Source of the DNA: an uncultured Hyphomicrobiaceae bacterium
GTDB lineage: Bacteria > Pseudomonadota > Alphaproteobacteria > Rhizobiales > Hyphomicrobiaceae
DNA: 64,000 nt
Reading direction: 5' to 3'
Assembly: GCA_937873575.1 (NCBI GenBank)
Contig: CALMPK010000336.1
Span: 26,624-90,623 of the forward strand
This document shows, piece after piece, positions 19,641-58,902 of the stretch. Made by a program: the position numbers and the translations under genes. Each line of letters starts with the position of its first letter. The first letter of the stretch is position 1. The notes beneath the pieces were generated by a model. The model was not told the DNA's origin and made no database searches. It saw only the letters and a list, made by a program, of their open reading frames with translations.

Positions 19641-19643
19641 GCC

Positions 19644-26721: not shown

Positions 26722-26735
26722 GGATGGAGGCCAAC

Positions 26736-27077: not shown

Positions 27078-27105
27078 ACAGTCATCGACCGAAGGAGCAG
27101 CAATC

Positions 27106-32347: not shown

Positions 32348-32355
32348 GGGCGGAC

Positions 32356-42140: not shown

Positions 42141-42141
42141 C

Positions 42142-43431
42142 TCACCCCCCCGTTGTATCGGCGGCGACACGGCTCACAACGAGCAGCCGAGCCTCTTCCA
42201 GCAGGGCCGCGAGGTCGCCTTCCGCCGCTGCCGCCTGGGCGAGGCCCTCGGGCAATTTGCTCCTGACTTCGGCTGCGATCCCCTCCGCCGCCCCGAGCAC
42301 GTCTGGCCTGCTCGCCAGCTCTGCGAGGATGGCAGGGAGATTGAAGGACGAGGCGCTGGCCGACACCGAGAGCTCGTTCGCATCGCGTGTACTTATGCGC
42401 AGCCTCTCGATCCAGATATCGTCACTGACGTGGTGGGCGACGGCCTGGACCTCGTCAGCCAGACGACGCGCGGAACTCTTGAGATGCTGATGCAGAGACG
42501 TGGCACCCGCAAGCGTGACGCGCATGGCGAGAAGTTTGTCGGCAGCCTTTTCAGCGTGCGGCGCCATCGCCTGCTTTACCGCCTCCAGGACGTCTCGCTC
42601 GTTCTCAAGCCCGGCCAACGGGACCTCGACCGACACCCAGCGTGCCGCATCGACGATAAGGCGGCGGACGTGGGCGACCTCTCCGTCGGTCACCTCGACG
42701 AGGACCGCGCCCTTGGGGCCGCACTCGCGTACACTGCGGCCTTGTAGATTGCCCGGGTAGATGACCCATGGGTCGCGCGACAGCTCCTCGTATTCGTGTA
42801 CGTGGCCGAGGGCCCAGTAATGATAGCCCCGCGATGCGAGGTCTGCGACCGTGCATGGCGCGTACGACGCGTGGCCGGGGCGGCCTGTGCACGACGTATG
42901 CAAAACACCAATGTTGAACCACCCAGGCACCGGCGCGGGATATTCGAGCGCATAATTCTCGGTTGCGGCCCGCTCCGCAAAGCTCCGACCGTGCAAGACG
43001 ACCTTCAGATGGTCGATCCGAAAGCTGCGCGCCTTGCCGGGCGGGAATTGATAGACGCTCTCCGGCAGAGTAATGGTTCTGGTGATAATGCTCTCAGCGT
43101 CGTGATTGCCCTTTAGCAAGAACAGCCCAATTCCCGCGCGATGCAGCCTTGCAATCTCTCGGTTGAAATAGAGGCCGATCGTATTGTCTTTCCAGTCGCC
43201 GTCGTACACGTCCCCCGCAATGACCACGAAGGATACCGCCAAATCGATAGCGCAAGTGATCAGTTGAGAGAACGCCTGTCGACTGGCTTCCGAGAAGCGC
43301 CGCGCGATCTCTTCGTCCTTGATGGTAAGACCCACTAGCGGGCTACCAAGGTGAAGATCGGCCGCGTGAATGAAAGTGAATGATGTAGTCGTGCTGGACA
43401 TGTTGGAATCGCCTCCACTCCCGGATGCCAC
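42142..43431 (-). CDS. Mre11/SbcD/YhaO-like metallophosphoesterase
   Basis: FIHAADLHLG, VVIAGDVYDG, LLKGNHD and ALGHVH phosphoesterase motifs. An alternative ATG start at 43401 has a GGAGG upstream. Confidence 0.85.
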   Translation of the reverse strand: MASGSGGDSNMSSTTTSFTFIHAADLHLGSPLVGLTIKDEEIARRFSEASRQAFSQLITCAIDLAVSFVVIAGDVYDGDWKDNTIGLYFNREIARLHRAGIGLFLLKGNHDAESIITRTITLPESVYQFPPGKARSFRIDHLKVVLHGRSFAERAATENYALEYPAPVPGWFNIGVLHTSCTGRPGHASYAPCTVADLASRGYHYWALGHVHEYEELSRDPWVIYPGNLQGRSVRECGPKGAVLVEVTDGEVAHVRRLIVDAARWVSVEVPLAGLENERDVLEAVKQAMAPHAEKAADKLLAMRVTLAGATSLHQHLKSSARRLADEVQAVAHHVSDDIWIERLRISTRDANELSVSASASSFNLPAILAELASRPDVLGAAEGIAAEVRSKLPEGLAQAAAAEGDLAALLEEARLLVVSRVAADTTGG

Positions 43432-43461
43432 GCGCTAACCAGGTTGCTTCGAGCTCCGGCT

Positions 43462-46400: not shown

Positions 46401-46905
46401 CGGCCACGAGGTCCGAGTAGAGCGCGAGCTGCAGCACATGGCTCGGCGCTTCCTTGCGCTTGAGCTTTGTGTCCTCGACCTCGTAAGAGGACGCGCCGAG
46501 CTTCGAGGGACGCTCGACGCGCCGCAGGAAGTCGGCATAGCCGCCCCAGCCGTCCCCGAAGAGAGCTGCCTGAAAGATGACCGGTTTGCCGGCCTTCATC
46601 GCCGCGATCGTCATCGCGCGCTGGTCGTCGAGACCGGCGAGCTTGGTCTCGATCATGGCGACGTCGGTGCCTGCCGATTTGAACTCGGCCAGATACGCGC
46701 GCTCGTGCGCGTCGCCCTTCTTCTGCAGCAGAGCAGCGGTCTCTGTGTCCTCGATGGGCACGAGCTTGCCACCGGGCTTGCCTGCTCCTCCACGGTTGCC
46801 GCGCGCGCCGAGATACTCGAGATCGAGCGCCGTCGCGTGCATGCAGCCCTGAAACCGCATCAGGTCCGATGCGGACAGTATGATCTTGCCGTTCTCACGT
46901 TTCAT
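43462..46905 (-). CDS. Cas4/RecB-like PD-(D/E)xK nuclease (TM0106-type) fused to an SF1 (Upf1/Dna2-like) helicase
   Basis: N-terminal Cys (FQGCMHA) plus a CSACSLCRWREHC cluster typical of Cas4-like Fe-S nucleases. Helicase motifs GPPGTGKTY, LFVDEAGQ, LVGDPMQL, VVTPYNAQ, KFQGQEA and LNVAISRAQ. Confidence 0.85.
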   Translation of the reverse strand: MKRENGKIILSASDLMRFQGCMHATALDLEYLGARGNRGGAGKPGGKLVPIEDTETAALLQKKGDAHERAYLAEFKSAGTDVAMIETKLAGLDDQRAMTIAAMKAGKPVIFQAALFGDGWGGYADFLRRVERPSKLGASSYEVEDTKLKRKEAPSHVLQLALYSDLVAEIQGVLPEHIHVKLGTGKLATLRLADYMHYARHLRRRLEAFIAGPEPTRPEPCSACSLCRWREHCKTEWDETDSLVLVAGIRKDQRLKLETAGVATLGQLAQCKTPVPDLKADTHAKLREQAALQHKRRQGGPPAFKLRENAEPGMGLARMLKPNAGDLFFDMEGDPLIEGGLEYLFGVWYEVKGSGQFKAFWAHTPEEEREATRAVLAFFDAHLRKHPDAYIYHYNHYEVTALKRLVAKHGVGEAKLDRLLREQRFVDLYRVVQQGIIASEAGYSIKDLEVFYSEKRNEDVTSAGDSIVVYERWRESRDDALLAGIRAYNEFDCKSTKGLRDWLIKEARPKQMPWADLKEVKDGKPGADERANAEETEREKIRTLLSRVTGPLAGPPAELLFELMWYHKREDKPQWWGVFDRAQRETDDLIDDLESLAGLEAIGPARPEKQSLARTYRFPEQETKLNEKSRVRAKLDDIPTVSLLSLDADTREVVVKFGPSVGKPPKTLDLIPAGPIDNLVKREAVARVAEDVFDNGCSYPAIEAILMGALPSIRGIKAGKPIIAADAELVSATVDVINRLRDSYLPIQGPPGTGKTYVASRAIVALLQSGKRVAVTSNSHKAIDNLMLAVAERAAEDGYELKAVKKADDGDALKDVGIDVTNSPKDARLSRYPLVGGTAWLFSAKEHDSTFDYLFVDEAGQLSLADLVAAGSCAKNIVLVGDPMQLAQPVQGVHPAGSDASALSHVLADATTVPSERGIFLPVSRRMHPAICKYISEVVYGGRLMSDSGAARQALILDERRAKMFPAAGLLFQTVAHEGNSQSSEEEAAAVRKAFVALHGQSFRDRDGKVRKITAADILVVTPYNAQVNLLARTLPDGARVGTVDKFQGQEAPICIVSMATSSAAELPRNIEFLFSVNRLNVAISRAQALSIVIASPRLLDVPCQTVEQMRLVNALCAVAVYGQDAGLAEGQRATGPGVCSGDRRTD

Positions 46906-46951: not shown

Positions 46952-46970
46952 TGACAAGAAGTGTCATGCG
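46952..46970. promoter_or_regulatory. Inverted repeat TGACA-N5-TGTCA followed by TGCG, upstream of the nuclease-helicase operon
   Basis: It lies 47-65 nt upstream of the start at 46905. TGTCATGCG (46962-46970) is the reverse complement of CGCATGACA at 48206-48214. Confidence 0.4.
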
Positions 46971-47178: not shown

Positions 47179-48174
47179 ATGACCTTCCGCAAAGCCGAGC
47201 AGCTGATCGAGTTGGCGACGATGGTGGCCGCACGTCACAGCGGCGTCACGCTCGACGATGTGGTCGAGCGGTTCGAGGTGTCGGGGCGAACGGCGCAGCG
47301 GTATCTGCACGCGCTGGAGGTTCAGTTTCCCGACACGCACACGTCGATCGACGACGTGGGCCGCAAGCGCTGGCGGCTGCCGTCGGCGCCGCTGCGAGAT
47401 CTGATGACGCTGTCGGCTGAGGAGCTGGCCGCGCTCGATCTTGCGGTCGAGACGCTGCGTCACAATGGACTCGGTGTCGAGGCCGACGATCTGCTTGCGC
47501 TGCGCGAGAAGATGCTAGCGCTGGTCCCGCGCGCTAAGGCTGCGCGGCTCGAGACCGACCACGAGGTGCTGCTCGAGGCGCAGGGGCTCGCCGCGCGTCC
47601 TGGACCCCGCCAACGCATCGACCGTCACGTCGCCCAAGCGATCGCCGAGGCGATCAAGTCGTGCCGCATTTTGGAGGTAAGCTACCGGGCACGTGACGAG
47701 GTCCAAGCACGGCCACGTCGCCTCGCACCCTATGGCCTGCTCACCGGCATCCGCCGCTATCTCGTGGCACGGCCGGAGGAGGAGCCGGACGCAGCGCCAC
47801 GCCTCTACGTAGTCGAGAGCATCCGCGGAGCGCGAGTCACCGACGAGGCCTCTACTCGCGATCCAGCGTTCAATTTGCAGGCGTTTGCTCGACGTTCCTT
47901 CGGCGTGTTCCAGAACCCGGAGGAATATGGCGAGGTTGTCTGGCGCTTCTCGCCCCGAGCGGCCGCTCACGCTCGCGGCTTCGAGTTCCACGCGAGCCAA
48001 ACGATGGAGGACCAGCCCGACGGTTCGTTGATCGTGCGCTTCTGGGCGTCCGGCCAACTCGAGATGGCATGGCACCTCTACATGTGGGGCGACGACGTCG
48101 AAGTGCTTGCGCCGCCCTCACTAAGCGAAATGGTCCACAACTTTCGGCGCAGGGACTTTCCGTCTCTTCCGTGA
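47179..48174 (+). CDS. WYL-domain transcriptional regulator (HTH-WYL-WCX architecture, BrxR/CapW class)
   Basis: N-terminal wHTH (VTLDDVVERFEVSGRTAQRYLHAL). Central segment ILEVSYRARDEVQARPRRLAPYGLL resembles a WYL domain. About 330 aa. Confidence 0.8.
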   Translation: MTFRKAEQLIELATMVAARHSGVTLDDVVERFEVSGRTAQRYLHALEVQFPDTHTSIDDVGRKRWRLPSAPLRDLMTLSAEELAALDLAVETLRHNGLGVEADDLLALREKMLALVPRAKAARLETDHEVLLEAQGLAARPGPRQRIDRHVAQAIAEAIKSCRILEVSYRARDEVQARPRRLAPYGLLTGIRRYLVARPEEEPDAAPRLYVVESIRGARVTDEASTRDPAFNLQAFARRSFGVFQNPEEYGEVVWRFSPRAAAHARGFEFHASQTMEDQPDGSLIVRFWASGQLEMAWHLYMWGDDVEVLAPPSLSEMVHNFRRRDFPSLP

Positions 48175-48205: not shown

Positions 48206-48225
48206 CGCATGACAGTTTCTGTCAT
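48206..48225. promoter_or_regulatory. Inverted repeat ATGACAG-TTT-CTGTCAT downstream of the WYL gene and upstream of the Clp-like operon
   Basis: 17-nt palindrome at 48209-48225. It shares the CGCATGACA / TGTCATGCG half-site with 46962-46970. Confidence 0.4.
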
Positions 48226-48475: not shown

Positions 48476-50323
48476 ATGTCTTCGATGCCGGATTTCGAGA
48501 AGCCGCGATGGCTGCGCGATCTCGTTCGCTTCCTGCCGCTGAAGAGTCAGTTCGTACTCTCCGGCAATGTGCGAGACCTGCAGATCTCATGCAACGCAAC
48601 CGGCGCAACCGCGCCCGTGCCGTTGGAGCACGCACTGCATGTCGAGCTGGCTGCGCAGGGATATGCCGCGACCGTCGTCTACGATCTCGTGTCGGGGTTC
48701 CGCGCGTTCGGTACCAGCGAGGCCGAGATCTCAGCCAGCCGCCAAGTGCTGCAGAGGCTCAACCTGACGCTCGATTCAGCCGGCAACGCGCCCGCAGGCG
48801 CAGCGCTGCTGATGGAGACGCTGGGCCGCTTCATCGCGCTCGACGGCCCGCCGGTGGCGCTCGTCATAGACTTCGCCTCGCGGCTCTTGGTGCGCAACGA
48901 TCTGCCAAGCGAGGCGGAGCAGCGGCTGTTCACGCACGCGCTGGTGCACGCTCACCGCGCCAGCGCCCGGCCCGCAGGGCCCAATCGCACGCCGGCCTTC
49001 AACACCATTCTGTGGGTCGTCGAGCGCGAGGGGAACCTGCCGGACTGGCTGACCATCGACAATCCGCGCGTGCGTTCGATCTCGATCCCGAAGCCCGACC
49101 GCAACGCGCGCGCCGTGCTCGCGCCGTCGCTACTCCGTCACATGCCGCAGGGTTCGGAGCTGGCGCCCGAGGTACTCGCCAAGATCGAGCGCGAGCTCGT
49201 CGACAACACCGAAGGTCTCTTGCTGCTCGACATGACCGCGATCTCGCAGCTCGCGCGCCGCGAGGGCATCGCGGTGATGAAGGTCGCCGACGCCGTGCGC
49301 CACTACAAGATTGGCGTCACCGAGGACCCGTGGGCCAAGATCCCGCGCGACAAGATTCGCGACGGTCACGCGACGATCACCAAGCGGGTGAAGGGTCAGG
49401 ACCACGCCGTGGTGCACCTGCTCGACATCATCAAGCGCGCGGTTACAGGCGTCGGCGGCCAGCGGCGCGGCGGCCGCCCCCGCGGCGTGGCGTTCCTTGC
49501 GGGTCCGACCGGCGTCGGCAAGACCGAGCTCGCCAAGACAGTGACGAGCCTCCTGTTCAACGACGAGACCGCCTACATCCGCTTCGACATGTCTGAGTTC
49601 AGCGCGGAACATGCCGACCAGCGCCTGATCGGCGCGCCCCCGGGCTACATCGGCTACGATGCGGGCGGCGAGCTGACCAATGCGATCCGCGAGCGCCCAT
49701 TCAGCGTCGTGCTGTTCGACGAGATCGAGAAGGCGCACCCGCGCATCCTCGACAAGTTCCTGCAGGTGCTTGACGACGGCGTGCTCACGTCGGGCCGGGG
49801 TGAGCGCGTATACTTCTCCGAGGCACTGATCCTGTTCACGTCCAACCTCGGCATCTACAAGAACGGCGCGGACGGCGAGCGCGTCGCCAACGTGACGGCG
49901 ACCGACGACTACGAGACGGTGCGCGCGAAGGTTCGCACCGAGATCGACCGCCACTTCAAGCAGGTGATCAACCGGCCCGAGTTGCTGAACCGCATGGGCG
50001 AGAACATCATCGTATTCGACTTCATCCGCGAGAATATTGCGCGCGATATCCTCGACGGCATGATCACCGATACGCTGGCGGATCTCGCCCGCGCCGACAT
50101 CGCCGTGACGCTCGAGCCGCAGGCGAGGCAAACGTTGAATGAGCTGTGCCTTGCGGATCTGTCGAATGGCGGACGCGGCATCCGCAATCGCGTCGAGGCG
50201 CATCTCGTCAATCCACTGGCGCGGCTGTTGTTCGAGAGCGGCGCTGGTGCCGGCAGCCGTCTCGCCATCTCGGGCGTCGAGGCCGACAAGGTCACGCGGC
50301 TCGTTGCACGGAGCGCGGCATGA
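48476..50323 (+). CDS. ClpA/ClpB-type AAA+ ATPase (single D2-like module) with uncharacterised ~330-aa N-terminal region
   Basis: Walker A GPTGVGKTELAK, IGAPPGYIGY, Walker B VVLFDEIEKA, sensor FTSN, and a D2-small-like tail (RPELLNRMGENIIVFDF). Confidence 0.8.
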   Translation: MSSMPDFEKPRWLRDLVRFLPLKSQFVLSGNVRDLQISCNATGATAPVPLEHALHVELAAQGYAATVVYDLVSGFRAFGTSEAEISASRQVLQRLNLTLDSAGNAPAGAALLMETLGRFIALDGPPVALVIDFASRLLVRNDLPSEAEQRLFTHALVHAHRASARPAGPNRTPAFNTILWVVEREGNLPDWLTIDNPRVRSISIPKPDRNARAVLAPSLLRHMPQGSELAPEVLAKIERELVDNTEGLLLLDMTAISQLARREGIAVMKVADAVRHYKIGVTEDPWAKIPRDKIRDGHATITKRVKGQDHAVVHLLDIIKRAVTGVGGQRRGGRPRGVAFLAGPTGVGKTELAKTVTSLLFNDETAYIRFDMSEFSAEHADQRLIGAPPGYIGYDAGGELTNAIRERPFSVVLFDEIEKAHPRILDKFLQVLDDGVLTSGRGERVYFSEALILFTSNLGIYKNGADGERVANVTATDDYETVRAKVRTEIDRHFKQVINRPELLNRMGENIIVFDFIRENIARDILDGMITDTLADLARADIAVTLEPQARQTLNELCLADLSNGGRGIRNRVEAHLVNPLARLLFESGAGAGSRLAISGVEADKVTRLVARSAA

Positions 50324-50982
50324 CGAGCATCGCCATCTCGCGTGTCCATTTCCCGGTCACGACGCTGGGGCCGCGCCGACGGCTGGGAATCTGGATGCAG
50401 GGCTGCTCGATCCGCTGCCCGGGCTGCATCTCTGCCGACACGTGGGCGACAGGCCGCGGCGTCGTCGCGCTGCCGCAGCTGTTGTGCCAGATCGCGCCAT
50501 GGCTCGACGAGGCCGAGGGCATCACCATCTCGGGTGGCGAGCCGTTCGACCAGCTGGATGCGCTTGGTGCGTTGCTCACGCAGCTCCGCTCGCGGACGGT
50601 TGCCGACATCCTGGTCTACAGCGGCCATCCCTTTGAGATGATTGCAACTCAGGTTGCGCAAATGGACGGCCAGATAGATGCGCTGATCACGGATCCTTAT
50701 CTCAACGACGCGCCGCAAACGCTGGCACTCCGCGGCAGCGACAATCAACGCCTGCACTGCCTGACAGCATTAGGCGAGGCGCGTTTTGGTGCGCTGCGTA
50801 ATGCGCCAGCGGAGAAGGCAGCACTCGACGTCATGTTCGACGACGACGGCAGCGTCTGGTTCGCCGGCATTCCCGCACGCGACGACTGGGAGCAGCTGCA
50901 GCACCGCCTCGCAAGTTTTAGCACCAAAGTCACGACGAGCATGGATGCCTCCCCGCGAGCCGGGAGGGCGATGGAATCATGA
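50320..50982 (+). CDS. NrdG/PflA-like radical-SAM (4Fe-4S single-cluster) protein
   Basis: GCSIRCPGC (CxxxCxxC, nt 50404-50427) and ITISGGEPF. 220 aa. ATGA overlaps on both sides. Confidence 0.7.
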   Translation: MTSIAISRVHFPVTTLGPRRRLGIWMQGCSIRCPGCISADTWATGRGVVALPQLLCQIAPWLDEAEGITISGGEPFDQLDALGALLTQLRSRTVADILVYSGHPFEMIATQVAQMDGQIDALITDPYLNDAPQTLALRGSDNQRLHCLTALGEARFGALRNAPAEKAALDVMFDDDGSVWFAGIPARDDWEQLQHRLASFSTKVTTSMDASPRAGRAMES

Positions 50983-53900
50983 GCGAGAAACTCTGCCCGA
51001 GCTGTGGCCAGCGACGTCCCGCGAGCGAGGTGTTCTGCGCCAACGACGGCTGGGACCTGACGAGCGTCCCGATTGAGATCGCCGCGACCATTGCCGCACA
51101 GCCAGCGCCTCTGACAGAGGCGCCGCCCGCTGAGCAAAAATGCGTCAACGGGCACGCCGTGCGGCTGGGCGACTTCATGTGCCCGGAATGCGGCGCGGAT
51201 ATTGCGCCGCCGCCCGCTAACGGATTCGGAGAGAGCGAGCAGGCACCCTACGACGCAGGCGAAACAGTTGACGAGAATGCTGCCGGCCCCGCGCCTGCGC
51301 AACAGCCAGAGCCCGAGCTGCCCCGGATTGGCACATGGAGGCTTGCGGCGCGCATCGGCCCGGAGCAGGGCGCAACGGCGACGTGGCAGGTGCATCGCGG
51401 TGACGGCGACGAGCGAACGACGGCGGTGCTGGTTCATTACCCCCGCGGACTGCGACCCGATCCAGCGGTCGCCGCGGCAGCACAAGCACTGGCACCTCGC
51501 GTTTCTAATGTGATCGAGCGCGGCGAGCACGACGACCGCCCGTTTGAGGTCTATGAGACCGCCGGCCGCCGCACACTCCGTGAAGCGATGCAGCAGGACA
51601 TTGCGGCAGATCGCCTCCGCGCGCAGGTTACCTCCATCGCCGCCCTACTCGGCGAGATGGCTCGCGTCGGTTTGCGGCATCGAGACCTCCGGCCCGAAGC
51701 CATTCTCGTCGATGACAGCGAAAGCGCCAGCGTAAGTATCTGCCGGCTCGCTGTTGCCCGCCTGTCGACGCACGATCTCGATACGGCGCCGCTGCCGGAG
51801 ATCACGCGCTATACGGCGCCGGAGATGCTGGCCGGCGCGGTAACGCCGGCATCGGACTGGTGGAGCCTCGGCATCATCGTACTCGAGATCGCCACGCGCG
51901 GCGCGGCGTTCGAGGGCATCGACGACCAAGCGTTCCTGATGCACGTCGTCGCGCGCGGCGTCGAGATCCCCGAGGGCGTGCCCACCGACATCAAGCCGCT
52001 ATTGCAGGGCCTGCTCGCCAAAGATCGCGACGAACGCTGGCAGGCAGACGAGGTCGAGGCGTGGCTCGCAGGCAAGCCCGTCGCACTCCCGCAAGTCCCA
52101 GTGAGCAGCACTGCGACGGCGGATGCACTCGATGCACTCACTCTCTCGGGCCGTGCCTATCGCAGCGTGTCGGCCTATGCGCTCGCTGCCGCGCGCAAGG
52201 ACAGCTGGCAGGAGGCACGCGAGCAGCTGATCAGCGGGCGCTTGCCGCTGTGGCTCGAAGGCTTTTCGACGGGCGAGCGCATGCGTGCGGGCGTTCGCAA
52301 CGTCGTTCGCCGCGACGAGCTCGACGACGACACCAAGCTCGGTCTCGCGCTGAAGCAGCTCAATCCGGACATGCCGCTGGTGCGCGCCGGCGAGATCGTA
52401 ACGGCGGCTTGGCTGCTGCAGCATCCGGAGGAAGGCCATGCGCTAATTACCGGCCCGGCGCCGGAGCTCCTGCAGCACGGCGCCGAGGGCTGGCTCGTCC
52501 GTCTGAAGCAGCGTGCCGCCGAGGTGCGTCGACGACTAAAGGCGCAGGAGATCGAAGTTGACGATGCGAGCCTGCGCATCAATCTGCTCTCGACCTCAAC
52601 GCGCCAACTCGCCCAGATGTGGGACGAACAGCGCCGCATGCTGCCCGACAGCGAGCATCGCGGCTTAGCAGCGCTGATGGAGCGCGGCACACTGCGCGAG
52701 GAAGAGCTGATCATCCTGCTGTCGGCGGCGAAAGGCCAGTTCGTGCCGCTGACCGAGGCTGTCGCGGTTGCCTCGCAACTGGCGCGCCGCGAGGGGATCA
52801 CGACGTTCGATGAAGGCTCGGCTAGCGAACTGCTGCAGTTGCCACGGCGCGAGATCCTGGAGCGCGTTAACGCTTGCGTCGAGGGCTTTGCGCGCTCAGG
52901 CCACGAGCGCATCGACCAGTGGATCGACCAGTACCGGCTCGAGCGCCGCATCCCGCTCTCCCGCGCGGTCGTAGTGCTGTCACTGCCCGCGAGTGCGTGG
53001 ACCAAGCCGCCGCGCCAGGACTACGTGGCGCGCCTGCTCTGCCATTTCGAGAAGAGGATCGGCACGTCCGTCTCGCGCGGTGCGCTCGCCCGCATGACGA
53101 TCACCAAGAGCAGCGCGCGCATCGACCTGAGCGAGCTCGGCACGCGGCGCAATCGCGCCACGGCGCTGCTCGATCACATTCTCGAGCGTACCGATGCCCC
53201 CGTCGACGTCGACCCGGCAGCGTTTGACGCCACGCCGCAACTCGAGCAGCGTCTGCGCCGGCTCGTACGCGATGCCGACCTGCAACGGCGTGAGACCGGC
53301 ATCAATGGCCTCTACCTCGGCTTCCCGTTCGTGCTGATGCGGCCACGCGGTGAGGAGACCAAGCCACGCATCGCGCCAGTGCTGTTGTGGCCGGTCTCGA
53401 TCCACGCCGAGGTCGGCCAACGCGCCCGCTTTCGCCTCGCGTTCGATCGCGACCGCGAGGAGGTTCGGCTCAATCCCGCGCTGCAAAACATGCTCGCGCC
53501 TGACGCGCTTGAGAAGTGGGACGCGGCGCGCGATCAGGTGCTGGCCGGCACCGCGACGGGAACAGCCGTGATGGACGAGCTGCGCATGCTCGCAGACAAG
53601 GTGCGCGTGGCTAGCTTGTGCCCGCTGCCGGGTGCGGACACAAAAGTGGCCTCGGATAAGATCGAGCTGACGTCGGCGGCCGTGCTGTTCCACGTCACGT
53701 TCGTGGGCCAAGCGATCGTCAACGATATCCATCAGCTGCAATCGATCCCGCCGGCCGGTTCCGGCCTGGAGACCCTGATGCGCAGCGGCGCGGAGCAGAA
53801 CAGGCTCTCCGCAGATGACACATCGTCGGCGACCGAGGTCGACCGCTACGTCACCGCCGACAGCGATCCGGCGCAGGACCGCGCCGTTGCGCGTGCACGT

Positions 53901-55304
53901 CTCGGCCCCGGGCTCGTGATCGAGGGGCCGCCCGGAACCGGTAAGAGCCAGACCATCGTCAATCTCGTCGCCGACGCGATCGGGCGCAAGTCGAGCCTGC
54001 TGATCGTGTGCCAGAAGCAGGCGGCACTCGACGTCGTGTACAAGCGCCTCGAGCGCGAAGGGCTCGGCGAGCGCATCGCGATGGTGACGGACCCGACCAA
54101 GGACCGTCGCGCGTTGCTGGAGCAAATCCGCAACCAGCTCGACCACTTGCGGGCGAACGGACGTAACGGGCCGACATGGCAGCGTCAGCGTGCCGCGGTC
54201 GTCGAGCGCATCTCCCGCCTTGAGGCGCAGCTCAACGCGCGTCACGACGCGCAACGCCGTCGCGACGATGCCTCGGGCCGCACCTATCGCGAGACGCTGT
54301 CCGAGCTGATCGAGATCGAGGCAGACGGCGCGCTTTCAGATTTTGTGGCACTGCGCAGCCTGCTCGCCTCGACAAGTGCCGAGGAGGCCGATGCGGTCGC
54401 CGAGCAGTGCGGCGCACTCGCGTCGCTGTGGCACTCCGCCCGCTACGAGAACAACGCACTGCATGCGCTGAAGCCCTTCGGCATCGAGCCGGGCACGGTC
54501 GAGCGCTGCTTACGCGACATTGAGGCGTTCGTCGTGGCAGAGCGGCGTCGCATCGAGGTGATCGACAAGCGCAGCCTGAGCATCGAGGTCCCCGATGCAG
54601 CCGCGCTGGGGTTGTGGGCCACACAGAATGCGCCGAGCCTCGCCAAGCTCAGCAAGGCCGAATGCGACGAGCTTGGGCGCTTCGTCGCTGCTTTCGAGCA
54701 GACAGGGGGCAGAAGCACCATCGACACACTGGCCGGCATCCGCAGCGAGTTGGCCGAGGTGCGCGAGCCGCGAATCGATCCGCGAATGGCCACGTTACTG
54801 ATCGATCAAGGCGATCTCGAGCTCGACGGCTGGATCGCGCTCGCGGCCGACGCATTGAAGCCGCGCGGATGGCTTGCGCGCCTTCTGGGTGGCGGCAAGA
54901 CGGCACGCCGCAAGCTGGAAGCGCTGCTCGCGCCGATCAGCCCCGTCGTCGGCGATCCGGTGATGCAAGCGTTTCTCGACGCGGCGAGCCACGAGCGCGT
55001 GCTGCGAGGCTACAAGGCACGGCTTGACGATGCGCGGCGGTCGGTCGGCGGGGACAGTGGCGGGGGGGGGGGGGCCCCCCCAGAGGTGTTCGGGGGCGGG
55101 CTTTTTTCCGGGGACGGAACCCCCGCCGCGGCGCCGGGGGGGGGGGGGGGGGCTGCATGCGACGTTTGCGTGGGCGCCCTGCCGCAGGCAAGCGATGGCC
55201 GCGGCATTGAAGGGAACGCCCGATGCGCTGGCGACGCTTTTCGACGCGATCACGCGGGCGCTGGCACACGACAGCGCGCAACGTGCGAGCCTCGGCGCGC
55301 TTGA
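50979..55304 (+). CDS. Giant protein, part 1: double Zn-ribbon, kinase-like domain, DUF4011-like region and SF1 helicase motif I; frame lost in the homopolymer segment near 55.06-55.15 kb
   Basis: CPSCG...FCAND and KCVNGH...CPECG ribbons. HRDLRPE (51678), YTAPE, DWWSLG. GLYLGFPFVLMRP...APVLLWPV. GPPGTGKSQT. The last roughly 80 codons of this ORF are Gly-rich read-out of G/C runs and are not credible protein. Confidence 0.75.
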   Translation: MSEKLCPSCGQRRPASEVFCANDGWDLTSVPIEIAATIAAQPAPLTEAPPAEQKCVNGHAVRLGDFMCPECGADIAPPPANGFGESEQAPYDAGETVDENAAGPAPAQQPEPELPRIGTWRLAARIGPEQGATATWQVHRGDGDERTTAVLVHYPRGLRPDPAVAAAAQALAPRVSNVIERGEHDDRPFEVYETAGRRTLREAMQQDIAADRLRAQVTSIAALLGEMARVGLRHRDLRPEAILVDDSESASVSICRLAVARLSTHDLDTAPLPEITRYTAPEMLAGAVTPASDWWSLGIIVLEIATRGAAFEGIDDQAFLMHVVARGVEIPEGVPTDIKPLLQGLLAKDRDERWQADEVEAWLAGKPVALPQVPVSSTATADALDALTLSGRAYRSVSAYALAAARKDSWQEAREQLISGRLPLWLEGFSTGERMRAGVRNVVRRDELDDDTKLGLALKQLNPDMPLVRAGEIVTAAWLLQHPEEGHALITGPAPELLQHGAEGWLVRLKQRAAEVRRRLKAQEIEVDDASLRINLLSTSTRQLAQMWDEQRRMLPDSEHRGLAALMERGTLREEELIILLSAAKGQFVPLTEAVAVASQLARREGITTFDEGSASELLQLPRREILERVNACVEGFARSGHERIDQWIDQYRLERRIPLSRAVVVLSLPASAWTKPPRQDYVARLLCHFEKRIGTSVSRGALARMTITKSSARIDLSELGTRRNRATALLDHILERTDAPVDVDPAAFDATPQLEQRLRRLVRDADLQRRETGINGLYLGFPFVLMRPRGEETKPRIAPVLLWPVSIHAEVGQRARFRLAFDRDREEVRLNPALQNMLAPDALEKWDAARDQVLAGTATGTAVMDELRMLADKVRVASLCPLPGADTKVASDKIELTSAAVLFHVTFVGQAIVNDIHQLQSIPPAGSGLETLMRSGAEQNRLSADDTSSATEVDRYVTADSDPAQDRAVARARLGPGLVIEGPPGTGKSQTIVNLVADAIGRKSSLLIVCQKQAALDVVYKRLEREGLGERIAMVTDPTKDRRALLEQIRNQLDHLRANGRNGPTWQRQRAAVVERISRLEAQLNARHDAQRRRDDASGRTYRETLSELIEIEADGALSDFVALRSLLASTSAEEADAVAEQCGALASLWHSARYENNALHALKPFGIEPGTVERCLRDIEAFVVAERRRIEVIDKRSLSIEVPDAAALGLWATQNAPSLAKLSKAECDELGRFVAAFEQTGGRSTIDTLAGIRSELAEVREPRIDPRMATLLIDQGDLELDGWIALAADALKPRGWLARLLGGGKTARRKLEALLAPISPVVGDPVMQAFLDAASHERVLRGYKARLDDARRSVGGDSGGGGGAPPEVFGGGLFSGDGTPAAAPGGGGGAACDVCVGALPQASDGRGIEGNARCAGDAFRRDHAGAGTRQRATCEPRRA

Positions 55305-57264
55305 TCAAATCGTGGCGTGGCTCGAGCCCAAGTGGATCGATCGTGCACGCGACCGCATTACCGCCGCGCAGTCGAATGCCGATGCACTGGAACGCCTCGT
55401 CGACTGCCTGCCCGCAATCGAGCCCTTCCAGCGTTTTCGTGCACGGGCGCAGCAGTTGCCGTCGCTCGCGCTGCAGGCATTCGCCGCTCTGCGACCCAAT
55501 GCTGACGAGTTGGACCTCTCGCTAACCACGGACGGCATCAACTTCGTCACACGAATCATCCGGCGCGAGGCACGGCTGGGCTGGAAGCAACGGCTGGAGG
55601 TGGCCGAGCCGATGCTAACCGCCGAGGAAGCCGAGATCTCGTCGTTGGTTCGTTCACTGGCGGAAGCCGAGGAGGAGTTGAAGCGCATCAACCGCGAGGC
55701 GCTTGCCGGCAACATCGAGCCGTCGCGTCTCGGCGACCGCGCGAGTTGGGACGACATCACCCGCTTCACCGGTCCGCGCTCGCGCCGCCTGCGCGAGTTT
55801 CTGCAAATGGGTGCGGAGATCGGCCTGATGGAGCTGAGACCCGTGTGGCTGATGGGCCCTGATGTCGCGAGCCGACTGCTGCCGCTGACGAAGGGGCTGT
55901 TCGAGACGATCGTCTACGACGAGGCATCACAGATGCCGGTAGAGTATGCCCTGCCGACGCTCTATCGCGCACGCACGGTGATCGTCAGCGGTGACGAGAA
56001 GCAGCTGCCTCCTTCGTCGTTCTTCGCCACGCGGACGGCGCGCGAGGACGATGTCGATGAGACGGAAGGCGCGCCGGACGATCTCGACGACGAGCAGCGG
56101 CAGGTAGCCGAGGAGGCATGGAACCGGCGCGAGATCCAGGACTGTCCCAATCTCTTGGAGCTCTCGAAGGGCGTGCTGCCGTCCGAGCAGCTGCAGGTGC
56201 ATTACCGTTCGCAATTCCGCGAGCTGATAACGTTCTCCAACGCCGGCTTTTACGCCGGTACGCTCAACGTTCCCGTGCGCCATCCCGTGGCCGAGGTCGA
56301 TCGGCATCGCCCCCTCGATTTCGTGCATGTCGGTGGCGTCTACGAGAGCCGGACCAATCCATCCGAGGCGGCTCGCGTGGTCGCACTGCTCGAGCAACTC
56401 TGGCTGGCGGATGGTGGCGCGCCGCCGACGACAGGCGTCGTCACCTTCAACCGCGATCAGGCCGACCTGATCGAGCAGCGCCTGGAGCGCCGCGCTGAGG
56501 AGAGCGACGCGTTCCGCCGCGCTCTGATCCGCGAGACGGAGCGGCAGATTAACGGCGAGGACATGGGCTTTTTCGTCAAGAATGTCGAAAATGTGCAGGG
56601 CGACGAGCGCGACCACATCCTGTTCTCGACGACGTTCGGCCGCAACGCCGCCGGCACGTTCCGCCGCAACTTCGGTGTGCTCGGCCAAAGCGGCGGCGAG
56701 CGCCGGCTCAACGTGGCGATCACACGCGCACGCCAGCGCATCACGATCTTCACCTCGATGCCGATCGGCGAGATCGCAGAAGTGTTGGGCAGCGGCGCAC
56801 GCCCCTCGCAGCCGCGCGACTACCTGCAGCTTTATCTGGCCTATGCCGATGCTGTCTCGAAGGGCGAGCACGAGCACGCCGCGAAGCTTCTCGTGCAGCT
56901 CGGGCGCCGCGGCGGCGAGCGCACACGGGCGAGGACCGAGGTCGCTGGCGACGCGTTCGTCCACTCGGTAGCGGCTGCCATCAAGGACCTCGGCTGGTCT
57001 CCAGTACACGCCGGCGACGACAGCGCGTTCGGCATCGATCTCGCCGTTCCGCACCCCGAGCACGGCGGCTTCGGCATCGGCATCGAGTGTGATGCAGCCG
57101 AGCATCCGCTGCTGGGCCGTGCCTACGCACGAGAGGTTTGGCGGCCGGGCGTTATGCGGCGCTCGCTGCCGGCCATCCACCGTATATCGAGCCGCAACTG
57201 GTATCACCGGCGATCCGACGAGATCGGGCGTCTACGCAAAGCCGTCGAAGCGGCGATGCGGTAG
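55024..57264 (+). CDS. Giant protein, part 2: SF1 helicase motifs II-VI plus C-terminal REase-fold (DUF559/Vsr-like) domain
   Basis: VYDEASQM, SGDEKQLPP, HYRSQ, VVTFNRDQ, VQGDERD, LNVAITRAR, then FGIDLAV...GIGIECD...W. Credible coding begins only after about 55155. Confidence 0.75.
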   Translation: MTMRGGRSAGTVAGGGGPPQRCSGAGFFPGTEPPPRRRGGGGGLHATFAWAPCRRQAMAAALKGTPDALATLFDAITRALAHDSAQRASLGALDQIVAWLEPKWIDRARDRITAAQSNADALERLVDCLPAIEPFQRFRARAQQLPSLALQAFAALRPNADELDLSLTTDGINFVTRIIRREARLGWKQRLEVAEPMLTAEEAEISSLVRSLAEAEEELKRINREALAGNIEPSRLGDRASWDDITRFTGPRSRRLREFLQMGAEIGLMELRPVWLMGPDVASRLLPLTKGLFETIVYDEASQMPVEYALPTLYRARTVIVSGDEKQLPPSSFFATRTAREDDVDETEGAPDDLDDEQRQVAEEAWNRREIQDCPNLLELSKGVLPSEQLQVHYRSQFRELITFSNAGFYAGTLNVPVRHPVAEVDRHRPLDFVHVGGVYESRTNPSEAARVVALLEQLWLADGGAPPTTGVVTFNRDQADLIEQRLERRAEESDAFRRALIRETERQINGEDMGFFVKNVENVQGDERDHILFSTTFGRNAAGTFRRNFGVLGQSGGERRLNVAITRARQRITIFTSMPIGEIAEVLGSGARPSQPRDYLQLYLAYADAVSKGEHEHAAKLLVQLGRRGGERTRARTEVAGDAFVHSVAAAIKDLGWSPVHAGDDSAFGIDLAVPHPEHGGFGIGIECDAAEHPLLGRAYAREVWRPGVMRRSLPAIHRISSRNWYHRRSDEIGRLRKAVEAAMR
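55062..55152 (+). repeat. Homopolymer-dense segment: G13 C7 ... G5 ... T6 ... G4 ... C5 ... G17
   Basis: G run 55062-55074, C run 55075-55081, T6 at 55102-55107, G17 at 55136-55152. It coincides with the frame change between the two halves of the giant gene. Confidence 0.9.
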
Positions 57265-57313
57265 GTGTACGGCACATAGCACAACGCGCGGAGAACGGAG
57301 AAAGGGCCCAGAC

Positions 57314-58681
57314 ATGAGCGGACCCAAGGTTGTCAGGATCGTCACAATTGAGGAGGTGCTGGAGATCTGCCGCGGCCACCTCGCGCGCCTCGATGAGGCG
57401 ATCAAGCGGTGGGAGCGGATCGGCCGTCGCAACGATGCGGTGACCGACGAGGACATCCGCGCGATGCGAGCCCGACAGACCGAGATCGCGGCTCTGGTAT
57501 CGAAGGAGCGCTATCCGGATCTGCAGAAGCGCGCGCCCGAGGAGATCCAGTACATCGAGGCCGACATCGAGCGGCGGTTGTCTGATGCGGCACGTCGTGC
57601 AGCCGAGGCTCGGGCGCGCGACCGGCGGCGCGCCTCACTGGCAACGCAACTTTTGAAGAGCGGAGCGGTGAAGGCCGAGTTGCGGGCCACGCTTGAAACG
57701 ATCGCGCGTGGCGAGGCTACAGACGCCGTCCGGGCGGAGGCCGCGCTCGGCGAGGTGCTACGGAGCGCGCCTGTTGTCGCCGACAGCAATGTTATCGTGC
57801 CCGCGGTGCGAGCTTTGGCTGAGCGGCACGCCCGGGGTCTCCAGGGGGAGTCATTCGACCAATGGCTTGCCGCCAACCAGCCTGCAGACGAAGCTGAAGT
57901 CGTGGCCGACAAGATCGATGCCGCGATTGCGGGGCTGGCTGTCGCCGGCGCCGCGCAGGAGGCCGAGGCGTTGTCGGCAAGATACAAGGTCGTGCTGGCA
58001 GAGCCCTCCGCGGCTCAGCGCAAGATGCGATCCGATACGCTCCTCATCGAAATTGGCAAAACGGCAGTCGCCAGCCGGGAGCGGCGGCGCTCGCTGGAAG
58101 AACTTGCGTCGACGACGGCCGAGGCTCGCACCGCGCTAGGGGCCACGCACTCGGCCTTTCTGGCGGAAGCTGCCGCTGCGGTCGAGCGCGAGGACGCAGC
58201 AGGCGCATCATCACTAACCGCCAAGCTGCGACAGGCGATGGTTGAGCACCGCAAAACCGCAGCGGCGGCGGCCCGCAGGGAGGCCGTGCTGTCCGCGCTG
58301 GCTGAGGTCGGCTACGAGGCGCGCGAAGGGCTCTCAACCGCGCAACCAACCGCCGGCCGCATGGTCTTGCGCCGCGCCGCCAACCCGGAGGTGGGCCTCG
58401 AGGTCTCCGGCGGCACGGCGAACGAGCGCGTGCAGCTGCGCCCAGTGCGCTTCGCCTCGCCCGGTACGACAGGGGATGCCTCCCGCGACCGAGACATTGA
58501 AACCATCTGGTGCGGCGACTTCGACCGCCTGCGCGAAAGCCTCGCCAAGCTCGACGCCGACGTTGCTATCGAGAAGGCGATGGCGATCGGCGCCACGCCG
58601 GTGATGGTCGTCGAGCAGGCAATACTGGACGCTGAAAGAGGTCCGGTTCAATTGCCCATCGATCGAACGCGCAGTGCGTAA
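57314..58681 (+). CDS. Coiled-coil hypothetical protein (Ala/Glu/Arg-rich)
   Basis: 455-aa ORF, 49 nt after the giant gene and on the same strand. Heptad-like Ala/Glu/Arg composition. No catalytic motif recognised. Confidence 0.6.
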   Translation: MSGPKVVRIVTIEEVLEICRGHLARLDEAIKRWERIGRRNDAVTDEDIRAMRARQTEIAALVSKERYPDLQKRAPEEIQYIEADIERRLSDAARRAAEARARDRRRASLATQLLKSGAVKAELRATLETIARGEATDAVRAEAALGEVLRSAPVVADSNVIVPAVRALAERHARGLQGESFDQWLAANQPADEAEVVADKIDAAIAGLAVAGAAQEAEALSARYKVVLAEPSAAQRKMRSDTLLIEIGKTAVASRERRRSLEELASTTAEARTALGATHSAFLAEAAAAVEREDAAGASSLTAKLRQAMVEHRKTAAAAARREAVLSALAEVGYEAREGLSTAQPTAGRMVLRRAANPEVGLEVSGGTANERVQLRPVRFASPGTTGDASRDRDIETIWCGDFDRLRESLAKLDADVAIEKAMAIGATPVMVVEQAILDAERGPVQLPIDRTRSA

Positions 58682-58826: not shown

Positions 58827-58902
58827 TGGTGGAGCCGAGGGGAATCGAACCCCTGACCTCTGCAGTGCGATTGCAGCGCTCTCCCATCTGAGCTACAGCC
58901 CC
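58827..58902 (-). tRNA. tRNA-Ala (anticodon CGC)
   Basis: The reverse complement folds as a 76-nt cloverleaf: GGGGCUG acceptor with G3:U70, anticodon stem CUGCA/UGCAG, loop AUCGCAC, GGTTCGATTCC T-arm, and an encoded CCA. Confidence 0.93.

Follow-up and report, generated by a model that had tools for sequence, protein, structure and literature searches.

The described proteins closest to the largest product of the locus analysed here are PDC-S37 (a PADLOC candidate), ProA (NCBIfam NF058533) and Hhe (NCBIfam NF042953), giant proteins annotated as single genes in PADLOC and NCBIfam, in which DUF4011 is joined to an SF1 helicase of the Upf1 type, carrying a long insert, and to a C-terminal Vsr-like restriction endonuclease (REase) domain (MTES_1575). 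Hhe was reportedly described by Gao et al. in 2020, and our literature search traced no paper describing ProA. In Mokosh, an Upf1-like/COG1112 helicase, MkoA, is paired with the PLD nuclease MkoB, MkoC being a fusion. Radical-SAM proteins have been linked to AAA+ conflict loci in the FtsH-ternary systems, for which such an enzyme was suggested to modify a peptide whose gene lies in its own locus (Kaur et al., 2020, eLife; PMC7159879). The AAA+ proteins of those systems are of the FtsH/classic clade and their partners include vWA/MoxR and other proteins with no helicase–nuclease effector, whereas the cassette considered here encodes a Clp D2-type protein next to a helicase–nuclease. As the preliminary description of this DNA had supposed, no name for a system of this composition was found in PADLOC 2.0, NCBIfam 20 (June 2026), Pfam or the searchable literature.

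In the 64,000-nt stretch of DNA that was analysed (the window), the cassette consists of four plus-strand genes: gene 1 (48476–50323; 615 aa counted from the ATG), gene 2 (50320–50982; 220 aa), gene 3 (50979–57264; 2094 aa when intact) and gene 4 (57314–58681; 455 aa). The starts of genes 2 and 3 overlap the stop codons of the preceding genes as ATGA (50320–50323 and 50979–50982) and 49 nt separate genes 3 and 4, an arrangement on which the ORFs, a direct reading of the sequence and the preliminary description all agree. An alternative GTG start of gene 1 is present in open frame at 48377. The cassette adjoins an ICE gene (CagX) and a tRNA-Ala(cgc) gene (58827–58902, minus strand). A Pfam search confirmed the domains described for genes 1–3 and returned no match for gene 4.

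A relative of gene 2 is encoded in at least 526 species genomes. In 83 loci from other genomes, distributed across phyla, gene order and strand were identical throughout: the N-terminal and C-terminal parts of gene 1 were found in 81 and 82 loci, respectively, gene 2 in all 83, the parts of gene 3 in 80–83 and gene 4 in 78. The missing genes are attributable to contig ends and to a single rearranged locus (L010), which carries an insertion and has no gene-1 match. Coupled starts, with overlapping or near-abutting frames, are found in the window and in other loci. Because the four genes keep their order and strand in essentially all 83 loci, the cassette is, judging from these alignments, a real conserved operon-like unit, far beyond chance; such co-occurrence in other genomes was what the preliminary description had named as a test of its proposal.

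Gene 3 matches the Pfam families Pkinase, DUF4011, AAA_11, AAA_12 and REase MTES_1575. Its layout comprises Cys clusters, a Pkinase-like domain, a conserved region (residues ∼ 400–750) for which no fold could be assigned, DUF4011, the helicase and the C-terminal REase. The helicase is of the Upf1-like SF1 type with a long insert and the REase is Vsr-like (MTES_1575); helicase motifs I, II, III, V and VI and the REase residues D2020/E2036/D2038 are conserved in 72–76 of 76 orthologues, in line with the earlier assignment of all three core domains. Two zinc ribbons had also been proposed; of the two Zn-ribbon-like clusters, the second consists of C55, H59, C68 and C71, whereas the first has just three conserved Cys residues (C6, C9 and C20). 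The kinase-like domain is likewise recognizable by its Pkinase match, but since the beta3 Lys (T in 69/76 orthologues) and the DFG Asp (G in 68/76) are lost, it is probably a pseudokinase, and the conserved catalytic-loop Asn is absent too. In PADLOC, gene 3 matched PDC-S37 with 153.6 and 336.8 bits and Hhe more weakly; the NCBIfam models for ProA and Hhe gave 165 and 330 bits (cut-off 1500) and 95 and 223 bits (cut-off 2000), respectively. The gene-3 core thus belongs to the PDC-S37/ProA/Hhe antiphage helicase–nuclease family, PDC-S37 being so far a candidate defence protein, and its helicase and nuclease motifs are intact. In contrast to these single-gene proteins, gene 3 always comes with three partner genes, carries ∼ 750 additional N-terminal residues (Zn ribbons, pseudokinase and the unassigned region) and shows no DUF3320. 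One PADLOC MkoA model also spans its kinase-like region (88.8 bits), but the cassette lacks a PLD nuclease, and neither an AAA+ unfoldase nor a radical-SAM enzyme nor a gene-4-like protein belongs to Mokosh as it has been described.

In the window assembly, gene 3 is split into two ORFs (50979–55304 and 55024–57264), the break falling in a G/C-homopolymer stretch at 55062–55150. A metagenome contig (L084; ENA ERZ794919 NODE_93) that is 99.65% identical to the window over 13.3 kb encodes gene 3 as a single 2094-aa ORF. As most of the differences between the two sequences, including three of the four gaps, lie within this stretch, and gene-3 orthologues are colinear across it, the frameshift can be assigned to an assembly or sequencing artefact, and the segment at 55.06–55.15 kb does need the correction suggested earlier.

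Gene 2 is predicted to be a radical-SAM protein of the NrdG/PflA (glycyl-radical-enzyme activase) type, as had been proposed from its CxxxCxxC and SGGEP motifs. It matches Pfam Fer4_12 (75.8 bits), residues 17–146 align with positions 13–151 of the 154 in the NCBIfam NrdG profile (69.9 bits, below the cut-off of 126) and the closest solved structure is the PFL-activating enzyme (PFL-AE) 3c8f (E 7e-12). QueE is a weak match (E 7e-5 in NCBIfam and 9e-4 among solved structures) and no pVip match was found in PADLOC or NCBIfam. The protein is not unusually short at 220 aa, contrary to the original impression: it covers the whole NrdG model and continues into a conserved C-terminal extension of ∼ 70 aa that NrdG and PflA do not have. 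The cysteines C29/C33/C36, SGGEPF and G17-P18...R21 are conserved in 73/73 orthologues, so that the CxxxCxxC, GGE and GxGxR motifs of NrdG and PflA are all kept; residue 19, within the otherwise near-invariant GxGxR loop, is R in the window copy and G in 72/73, a point against the reading proposed below. In PFL-AE, this loop touches the substrate peptide. Unlike NrdG and PflA, gene 2 is accompanied by an unfoldase and a helicase–nuclease instead of a glycyl-radical enzyme, and neither Pfam nor a motif search found a Gly_radical domain or an RVxG[FWY] motif in any cassette protein. Glycyl radicals are oxygen-labile, and most hosts of the cassette are aerobes, which counts against a glycyl-radical step.

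The gene 1 product is predicted from its modelled structure to be a two-ring AAA+ protein of the Hsp100/Clp type with an active-looking D2 ring. It matches Pfam AAA_2 (156 bits) and ClpB_D2-small and scores 250 bits against NCBIfam ClpB (cut-off 1232). Its AF2 model (pLDDT 81) aligned in Foldseek over ∼ 650 columns with the two-ring proteins ClpC1, ClpC, ClpB and ClpA (E 1e-28), and the two stacked AAA+ modules of this predicted structure, the D2 Walker A and B motifs, the GYVG-type pore loop and the D2-small domain are shared with the class-I Hsp100/Clp proteins (ClpB, ClpC, ClpA and ClpV). In D2, Walker A, Walker B and the GYxGY pore loop show no variation among the orthologues (80/80). The D2-type module had been recognized correctly, whereas the ∼ 330 preceding residues, in which no motif had been seen, correspond in the Foldseek alignment to a degenerate D1 AAA+ ring: the orthologue alignment shows a conserved SQFVLSGNVRDLQ and no GK[ST]. 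Gene 1 thus differs from class-I proteins in a D1 without nucleotide-binding motifs, and neither an N-domain nor an M-domain was detected. Because no ClpP-docking tripeptide was seen in the sequence, read by eye without a dedicated tool, gene 1 probably remodels its substrates rather than feeding them to degradation.

Gene 4 had no family match in Pfam, NCBIfam, PADLOC or PHROGs, and Foldseek, run with its AF2 model (pLDDT 82.9, pTM 0.74), matched nothing in PDB or BFVD (best E 0.97 and 0.54, respectively); on this model it is predicted to be a new fold. An invariant N-terminal strand (MSGPKVVRIVT) leads into a long helical bundle (residues 12–332), followed by a loop in which G333-Y334 is invariant; the C-terminal domain is alpha/beta and contains ETIWCGDF. 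The previous reading of gene 4 as a coiled coil therefore captured the bundle and missed the C-terminal domain and the invariant motifs, namely S2, G3, P4, K5, G333, Y334, E396 and C400, each found in 67/67 orthologues. The family comprises 1396 clusters at 50% identity, all of ∼ 430–465 aa.

Orthologues of genes 1 and 2 also occur in other company. On an Aristaeella plasmid they stand with a PDC-S37 protein that scores in full against its model (1308 bits) and with FHA, PP2C and an active kinase, and the gene-4 position is occupied by a 430-aa protein with an MSGPK start (hhalign to gene 4, E 0.048). On a Moellerella conjugative plasmid they are found with an MkoA-like helicase (340 bits), a further point of likeness to Mokosh, and with a PIN protein, ArdA and an R-M S subunit being encoded alongside; here the gene-4 position is taken by a 381-aa protein (hhalign E 0.1). 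We conclude from these neighbourhoods that genes 1 and 2 form a module that recurs beside other nuclease/helicase effectors; the 381- and 430-aa plasmid proteins are probable, if unproven, relatives of gene 4. Gene 2 is always found with a protein unfoldase to which it is translationally coupled, and coupling of radical-SAM and AAA+ genes recurs in an unrelated cassette, the classic-clade AAA / DUF2997 / HhH / radical-SAM cassette of Rhodococcus and Bacillus plasmids.

The flanks of the cassette are mostly unshared within genera (4/91 upstream in Bradyrhizobium, 1/36 in Pseudomonas). It is found on Rhizobium plasmids and, in Novosphingobium, in an island with ParB, ArdC, AlpA and HEPN genes, and is predicted on these grounds to be mobile and self-contained. 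In P. aeruginosa the cassette genes border the core defence hotspot cDHS1 (PMC10250203). In a raw count, taken without a control set, over 131 ORFs flanking 31 cassette loci, PADLOC recognized HamA (3e-128), Upx (3e-76), PD-Lambda-4_B (2e-85), a type II REase (5e-56), AbiO and Nhi.

The antiphage relatives of gene 3, the mobility and the swapping of effectors make a conflict or defence role the best reading, as originally suggested, and the cassette most probably represents a multi-protein defence system that has not been described before. Since the gene-3 core is akin to the antiphage proteins PDC-S37, ProA and Hhe, the system would be a new version, built of several genes, of an effector family already known, and is not wholly unprecedented. 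That gene 3 is the effector, with genes 1, 2 and 4 as its control module, we hold at a probability of roughly 0.5. Such a cassette would target nucleic acids in anti-phage or anti-mobile-element conflict: gene 3 would move along foreign nucleic acid and cut it, its Zn ribbons, pseudokinase and central region serving as a sensing or regulatory part. Gene 1 would act as a hexameric Clp/Hsp100-type threading motor, with the D2 ring as sole driver and an intact Tyr pore loop, and would remodel a protein partner so that the effector is switched on or off. Gene 4 would be the best candidate for this partner, as its invariant MSGPK N-terminal tail could be a pore-entry tag. Gene 2, with its [4Fe-4S] cluster and SAM, would take a hydrogen atom from a partner polypeptide, not from a nucleotide. 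The candidate sites are the gene-4 loop with G333-Y334 or a stretch that gene 1 has unfolded, and the outcome would be a licensing modification or a radical. The links of genes 1 and 2 with gene 4 are drawn from conserved motifs and gene order only, and the particular functions suggested here for these three genes are tentative, being in our estimate somewhat unlikely to be right.

Core presence and housekeeping surroundings are unusual for defence systems, and Upf1-like helicases also work in RNA surveillance. The cassette could instead be a housekeeping or stress module for chromosomal nucleic-acid quality control or repair that would, for example, clear stalled or damaged RNA/DNA–protein complexes, with the unfoldase pulling off the proteins and the helicase–nuclease processing the nucleic acid. 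Consistent with this, the genes belong to the core genome of every P. aeruginosa isolate (PMC10250203), some loci lie amid housekeeping or metabolic genes (Bordetella recO/MFS; P. protegens), host-restricted bacteria, among them Chlamydiae, Legionella and Gilliamella, have kept the cassette, and a search of 2.9 million viral contigs yielded no orthologue. We nevertheless consider a role outside immunity unlikely, given the patchy distribution, the non-syntenic flanks within genera, the plasmid and island locations, the defence genes in several flanks and the antiphage proteins as nearest named relatives of gene 3; an accessory module that swaps effectors (PIN, MkoA-like and PDC-S37) on mobile elements is, moreover, typical of defence systems.

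Within a conflict role, gene 2 might act on a small molecule or nucleotide, yielding a modified nucleotide, chain terminator or signal in the manner of viperins or QueE-type enzymes, and the AAA+ protein would then work independently. Known defence radical-SAM enzymes, such as the pVips and OpnA of the Ophion system (bioRxiv 10.1101/2025.09.30.679545), do act on nucleotides, a distant Moellerella homologue has a weak pVip match (5.6e-6), and the QueE matches and the absence of a canonical glycyl-radical motif or domain point the same way. However, the full NrdG model and PFL-AE match gene 2 far better than QueE does, the GxGxR loop is kept, no nucleotide-handling partner (such as a kinase or PRTase) is encoded and the coupled unfoldase is always alongside, even in the unrelated cassette, so that we regard this version as quite unlikely. 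That gene 3 acts alone, like its single-gene relatives, with genes 1, 2 and 4 as unrelated neighbours or dispensable accessories, is in our judgement improbable: all four genes recur in 78–83 of the 83 loci with overlapping or near-abutting frames, gene 3 falls far short of the cut-offs for ProA and Hhe, and genes 1 and 2 are found together beside different effectors. The catalytic motifs in genes 1 and 2 do not vary, nor do the gene-4 motifs, which indicates purifying selection on function.

The preliminary description had called the operon WYL-linked, after the WYL/WCX transcription regulator gene (47179–48174, plus strand; Pfam WYL and WCX) upstream of gene 1. This gene adjoins the cassette in the window lineage only, with no homologue at any of the 83 other loci (0/83), and was rejected as a cassette member. 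It is flanked by the only two copies in 64 kb of a TGACA-N5-TGTCA palindrome, against 0.05 expected for this pattern, which was picked post hoc: a candidate operator, TGACAGTTTCTGTCA, at 48210–48224 between the WYL gene and gene 1, and TGACAAGAAGTGTCA at 46952–46966 between a divergent nuclease–helicase gene and the WYL gene. Among 130 loci, the palindrome is present in L084 only. Because in this genome, and only here, the WYL gene has a copy on either flank, local control by the regulator is possible.

With each species represented by a single genome, a scan found relatives of gene 2 encoded in at least 526 genomes. Analysis of 83 loci, comprising the best 80 of these at least 526 and three from an exact look-up, revealed gene 2 in all 83, the N-terminal part of gene 1 in 81 and its C-terminal part in 82, the four gene-3 parts in 80–83 and gene 4 in 78, with gene order and strand identical throughout. 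The conserved co-occurrence put up for testing in the preliminary description, which had proposed a WYL-linked four-gene conflict system, holds for the four genes themselves. The gaps are found at contig ends, the only exception being a locus (L010) with an insertion, ∼ 2.6 kb lying between genes 2 and 3, and no gene-1 match upstream. Hosts of the cassette are found among Alpha-, Beta- and Gammaproteobacteria, Chlamydiae, Verrucomicrobia and Acidobacteria, and include Legionella and the bee-gut Gilliamella. Its flanks mostly differ, even inside one genus; Rhizobium plasmids carry it, as does a Novosphingobium island. PADLOC analysis of 131 flanking ORFs from 31 genomes, with no control set for comparison, identified Hachiman HamA, Upx, PD-Lambda-4_B, a type II restriction endonuclease, AbiO and Nhi. 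A phage origin was rejected, as the 2.9 million viral contigs searched carried only ordinary NrdG-like genes (25–38% identity, residues 17–145) and no cassette.

Direct reading of the sequence confirmed the layout first described for the window, in which gene 1 (48476–50323), coding for a Clp-type AAA+ protein, gene 2 (50320–50982), coding for a radical-SAM enzyme, gene 3 (50979–57264), coding for a giant helicase-nuclease, and gene 4 (57314–58681) all lie on the plus strand. The starts of genes 2 and 3 overlap the preceding stop codons in ATGA sequences at 50320 and 50979, respectively, and gene 4 follows gene 3 after a 49-nt gap. The WYL gene (47179–48174) is upstream of gene 1 on the same strand, and a tRNA-Ala gene is located 146 nt downstream of gene 4 on the opposite strand. 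Upstream of the WYL gene, a minus-strand operon at 38610–46905 encodes an AAA_27/SMC-like ATPase (a weak LmuB match), a metallophosphoesterase and a 1147-aa nuclease-helicase, and the ICE gene CagX lies beyond it. This 1147-aa protein combines an RNase_H_2 (RecB-like) nuclease with an SF1 helicase, whose MkoA-like core scores 172 bits. Of the 83 cassette loci, 13 have tblastn matches to this protein in their flanks, some of them partial or of low identity, and at one locus (L026) a relative adjoins gene 1 in divergent orientation, as in the window. Scans of the 46.8–59 kb region for promoter-like sites (none found) and terminator-like sites (no more numerous than expected from shuffled sequence) were uninformative. 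A few kb past the tRNA gene, a 787-aa protein (61541–63904, minus strand) carries an N-terminal Ser/Thr kinase domain, similar to PD-T4-6 (129 bits), and C-terminal WD40 repeats.

The assembly splits gene 3 into two ORFs, with the frame switching within G/C homopolymers (13 G, then 8 C and later 15 G) at 55062–55150, where ∼ 90 nt are corrupted. The metagenome contig L084 (ENA ERZ794919 NODE_93), which is 99.65% identical to the window over 13.3 kb, encodes a single 2094-aa gene-3 protein; its equivalent of 55062–55150 is also noisy, with the frame kept, and most of the differences between the two sequences, including three of the four gaps, fall within this segment. Because L084 encodes one protein and the gene-3 orthologues are colinear across this region, the disruption is taken to be an artefact, apparently arising from sequencing or assembly at low coverage.

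The proposed link to the WYL regulator was not borne out as a feature of the system. No WYL homologue was found in any of the 83 cassette loci, such a gene being seen only in the window and in L084, and we therefore reject it as a general cassette component. This distinguishes the cassette from the WYL-regulated defence operons of the BrxR/CapW type, where the adjoining WYL gene is conserved. The palindrome TGACA-N5-TGTCA, a pattern chosen post hoc, occurs exactly twice in the 64 kb (0.05 copies expected), in the gaps that separate the WYL gene from its neighbours: at 46952–46966, towards the divergent nuclease-helicase gene, and at 48210–48224, towards gene 1; among 130 fetched loci, only L084 has it. 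The two copies represent a candidate shared operator and, since they bracket the WYL gene, the WYL protein may regulate both flanking operons in this lineage.

In gene 1, Pfam recognizes an AAA_2 module together with a D2-small domain of the ClpB type. Its first 330 residues, in which no motif had been recognized, indeed show no family match; however, the AlphaFold model (pLDDT 81) aligns with two-ring ClpC1, ClpC, ClpB and ClpA over ∼ 650 columns (Foldseek E 1e-28), and on the basis of this structural alignment they are predicted to form the D1 ring. Walker A, Walker B and the GYxGY pore loop of D2 are present in all 80 orthologues, whereas D1 has SQFVLSGNVRD in place of Walker A, kept in 75–80 of the 80. 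Gene 1 thus differs from the Hsp100/Clp class-I unfoldases, in which both AAA+ rings carry nucleotide-binding motifs, in combining a two-ring fold with a D1 that lacks Walker A.

Residues 17–146 of gene 2 span positions 13–151 of the 154-position NrdG model, that is, the whole model, with a score of 69.9 bits, below the NCBIfam equivalog cut-off of 126.1 bits. Its best solved relative is the pyruvate formate-lyase-activating enzyme, PFL-AE (E 7e-12), with QueE far weaker. Like the NrdG/PflA activases, gene 2 has the CxxxCxxC, GGE and GxGxR motifs: C29, C33, C36, SGGEPF, G17, P18 and R21 are found in all 73 orthologues, the GxGxR loop aligns with DGPGIR of PFL-AE, and the further 70 C-terminal residues are also conserved. 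Codon 19 of the window copy (50374–50376) specifies Arg within this loop, as against Gly in 72 of the 73 orthologues; L084 is identical to the window here, and R19 might be either a genuine change, perhaps one that impairs the enzyme, or a sequencing error common to both. Unlike the NrdG/PflA activases, each with a cognate glycyl-radical enzyme or domain, the cassette encodes no detectable partner of this type: genes 1, 3 and 4 have no Pfam match to the Gly_radical domain and the cassette proteins no conserved RVxG[FWY] motif. The conserved glycine-aromatic sites are found in gene 1 (G62, G74 and the pore loop), gene 3 (G486 and G781) and gene 4 (G333-Y334). Gene 2 also differs from the prokaryotic viperins (pVip), whose PADLOC models gave no match at E values up to 0.01.

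In gene 3, a pair of Cys clusters and a Pkinase domain precede a conserved stretch of ∼ 350 residues, of unknown fold, after which come DUF4011, an Upf1-like helicase and an MTES_1575 restriction endonuclease (REase) domain. Pfam matches to DUF4011, AAA_11, AAA_12 and MTES_1575 support the combination of DUF4011, Upf1-like helicase and Vsr-like nuclease noted initially, and helicase motifs I, II, III, V and VI and the acidic residues of the REase are kept in 72–76 of 76 orthologues. Insertions are seen in L011 and L045 as gaps of ∼ 1–2.3 kb within the helicase insert region. The kinase-like domain (residues 183–359) does have the Pkinase fold, scoring 56.9 bits against a gathering score of 31.7, and keeps the HRD His and Asp, APE and DxWSxG, but three residues of active enzymes are not conserved. 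Position 152 (the beta3 Lys of VAIK) is Thr in 69 of 76 orthologues, position 241 (the catalytic-loop Asn) is Thr in 32, Asn in 16, Val in 13, Ser in eight and Ala in seven, and position 256 (the DFG Asp) is Gly in 68 of 76, giving GFG. This domain is probably a pseudokinase, whereas a stand-alone homologue from Aristaeella retains the beta3 Lys, the catalytic-loop Asn and the DFG Asp.

Like members of the Hhe/ProA/PDC-S37 class, gene 3 has DUF4011, an Upf1-like SF1 helicase and a C-terminal Vsr-like REase in one polypeptide. This core matches PADLOC PDC-S37 and, more weakly, Hhe, as well as NCBIfam Hhe and ProA, the latter a name whose origin was not traceable in the literature searched. All these matches are partial: the N- and C-terminal parts of gene 3 score only 95.5 and 222.9 bits with Hhe (NF042953, cut-off 2000 bits), its two halves 165.1 and 330.4 bits with ProA (NF058533, cut-off 1500 bits; positions 454–887 and 1087–1707 of 1903), and 153.6 and 336.8 bits with the PDC-S37 model PDLC05009 (positions 100–496 and 899–1342 of 1550), as compared with 1308 bits for the Aristaeella DUF4011 protein. 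PDC-S37 is a single-gene PADLOC candidate with no PADLOC cut-off. In contrast to Mokosh type I, which consists of the helicase MkoA and the PLD-family nuclease MkoB, gene 3 has only partial MkoA matches (88.8 and 64.5 bits) and no cassette gene matches a PLD domain or MkoB in Pfam or PADLOC. Genes 1, 2 and 4 match no defence models except for generic AAA similarity, and the cassette is distinct from Ophion and from the FtsH-ternary radical-SAM systems.

Gene 4 has no match in any family library searched. Its model (pLDDT 83, pTM 0.74) includes the long helical bundle that had been read as a coiled coil, as well as a predicted N-terminal strand and C-terminal alpha/beta domain that this reading had missed. 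No similar fold was found in PDB or BFVD, and PDB sequences searched with a profile likewise gave nothing. The family comprises ∼ 1400 clusters at 50% identity, every one of ∼ 430–465 aa, and the MSGPK N-terminus, the G333-Y334 loop, a candidate glycyl-radical site, and the ETIWC motif are invariant among orthologues.

Two plasmids carry distant relatives of the cassette. The Aristaeella lactis plasmid NZ_CP069422 has a related operon (15062–32924) encoding a full PDC-S37 DUF4011 protein, a predicted active Ser/Thr kinase, a 430-aa protein, an FHA protein, a radical-SAM enzyme, a gene-1 orthologue with a likewise degenerate D1, a PP2C phosphatase and, additionally, DUF6273 and a further kinase. 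Here the kinase is a protein of its own with its catalytic residues intact, and it is accompanied by phospho-signalling parts; 7.5 kb upstream there is a WYL gene. The five-gene operon of the conjugative Moellerella wisconsensis plasmid NZ_CP093250 (178826–188779) encodes an MkoA-like helicase (1318 aa, 340 bits), an 800-aa PIN protein, a gene-1 orthologue and a radical-SAM enzyme, with a 381-aa protein taking the place of gene 4, and adjoins ArdA, a restriction-modification S subunit and a PD-(D/E)XK nuclease. Statistical support from hhalign for homology of the 381-aa and 430-aa proteins with gene 4 is weak (E 0.05–0.1); we provisionally consider them homologous because of the MSGPK start of the Aristaeella protein, which also has GY and FCxDYD motifs in common with gene 4, the aligned G[YF] motif and the gene position. 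Since genes 1 and 2 stand beside different effectors in these cassettes, they appear, together with a gene-4-like protein, to constitute a portable module used across nuclease/helicase effectors.

Gene-1 and gene-2 homologues were also recovered from Pseudomonas aeruginosa and P. paraeruginosa; in P. aeruginosa, confirmation extends to the DUF4011 marker PA14_RS11765 and to fragments labelled 'putative chaperone', and PA2725–PA2728 are presumably the PAO1 locus tags of its cassette genes. These genes have been treated as core genes flanking the defence hotspot cDHS1 (Johnson et al., PMC10250203), and this was the only relevant match in the full-text literature searched, where nothing describing the cassette came up. 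The earlier statement that no named system has this composition therefore stands for the family libraries and literature searched, and the cassette is a multi-gene variant on a known effector family with an apparently undescribed accessory module.

Most likely, the cassette is a four-protein anti-phage or anti-mobile-element system. The original conflict-system interpretation thus survives in part, having lost the WYL link and the novelty of the effector family. Gene 3 would be the effector and genes 1, 2 and 4 would control it: the D2-driven unfoldase could remodel gene 4, with its invariant N-terminal tail as the entry tag, and the activase-type radical-SAM enzyme would act on a polypeptide partner. 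One main rival to this reading is a housekeeping nucleic-acid surveillance module, favoured by the core status of the genes in P. aeruginosa and by the housekeeping neighbourhoods of certain loci; the pairing of one module with differing nuclease/helicase effectors is a pattern typical of defence systems.

With regard to control, we give roughly one chance in four to an immune module in which the unfoldase presents a polypeptide to the radical-SAM enzyme, and the resulting protein radical or modification licenses or fires the helicase-nuclease. The lack of a canonical glycyl-radical motif in the cassette and the aerobic lifestyle of most hosts argue against such a radical step. Gene 2 might instead modify nucleotides, another main rival. 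As a third, gene 3 might be a stand-alone effector with dispensable neighbours, although it never stands alone among the 83 loci.

The cassette is of interest because it occurs so broadly, because P. aeruginosa carries it and because its radical-SAM chemistry is unexplained. If it is a defence system, it is widespread in Proteobacteria, Chlamydiae, Verrucomicrobia and Acidobacteria, and in a model pathogen its genes have served merely as the cDHS1 'core flank'. Roles would then be assigned to three families: the previously uncharacterized Clp-like ATPases with a dead D1 ring, the uncharacterized NrdG-like radical-SAM proteins without a ribonucleotide reductase partner and the ∼ 1400 gene-4 clusters without detectable fold relatives. 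The control module proposed here, if real, would be the first case of activase-type protein-radical chemistry in immunity; the cassette also poses the biochemical question of what change a radical-SAM enzyme of the activase type makes to a protein when most of the bacteria that carry it are aerobic. The association of genes 1 and 2 with different nucleases also provides a handle for finding more systems.

Separate radical-SAM cassettes were seen on other plasmids. Those of Rhodococcus aetherivorans (4252–7989) and Bacillus cereus (10992–14801) encode an NrdG-like radical-SAM protein, a classic-clade AAA protein (PF00004, IetA-like), a 141–151-aa protein, DUF2997 and an HhH_3 protein; this conserved AAA+/radical-SAM cassette has no name in PADLOC and may be related to what Kaur et al. 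(2020) described as FtsH-ternary radical-SAM systems. In plasmid pGM01 of Geminocystis sp. NIES-3708 (6986–13651), an NrdG-like radical-SAM gene is followed by five hypothetical genes and adjoins genes for an anti-phage dCTP deaminase and a dGTPase and fragmented UvrD-like genes, in what looks like a defence island.
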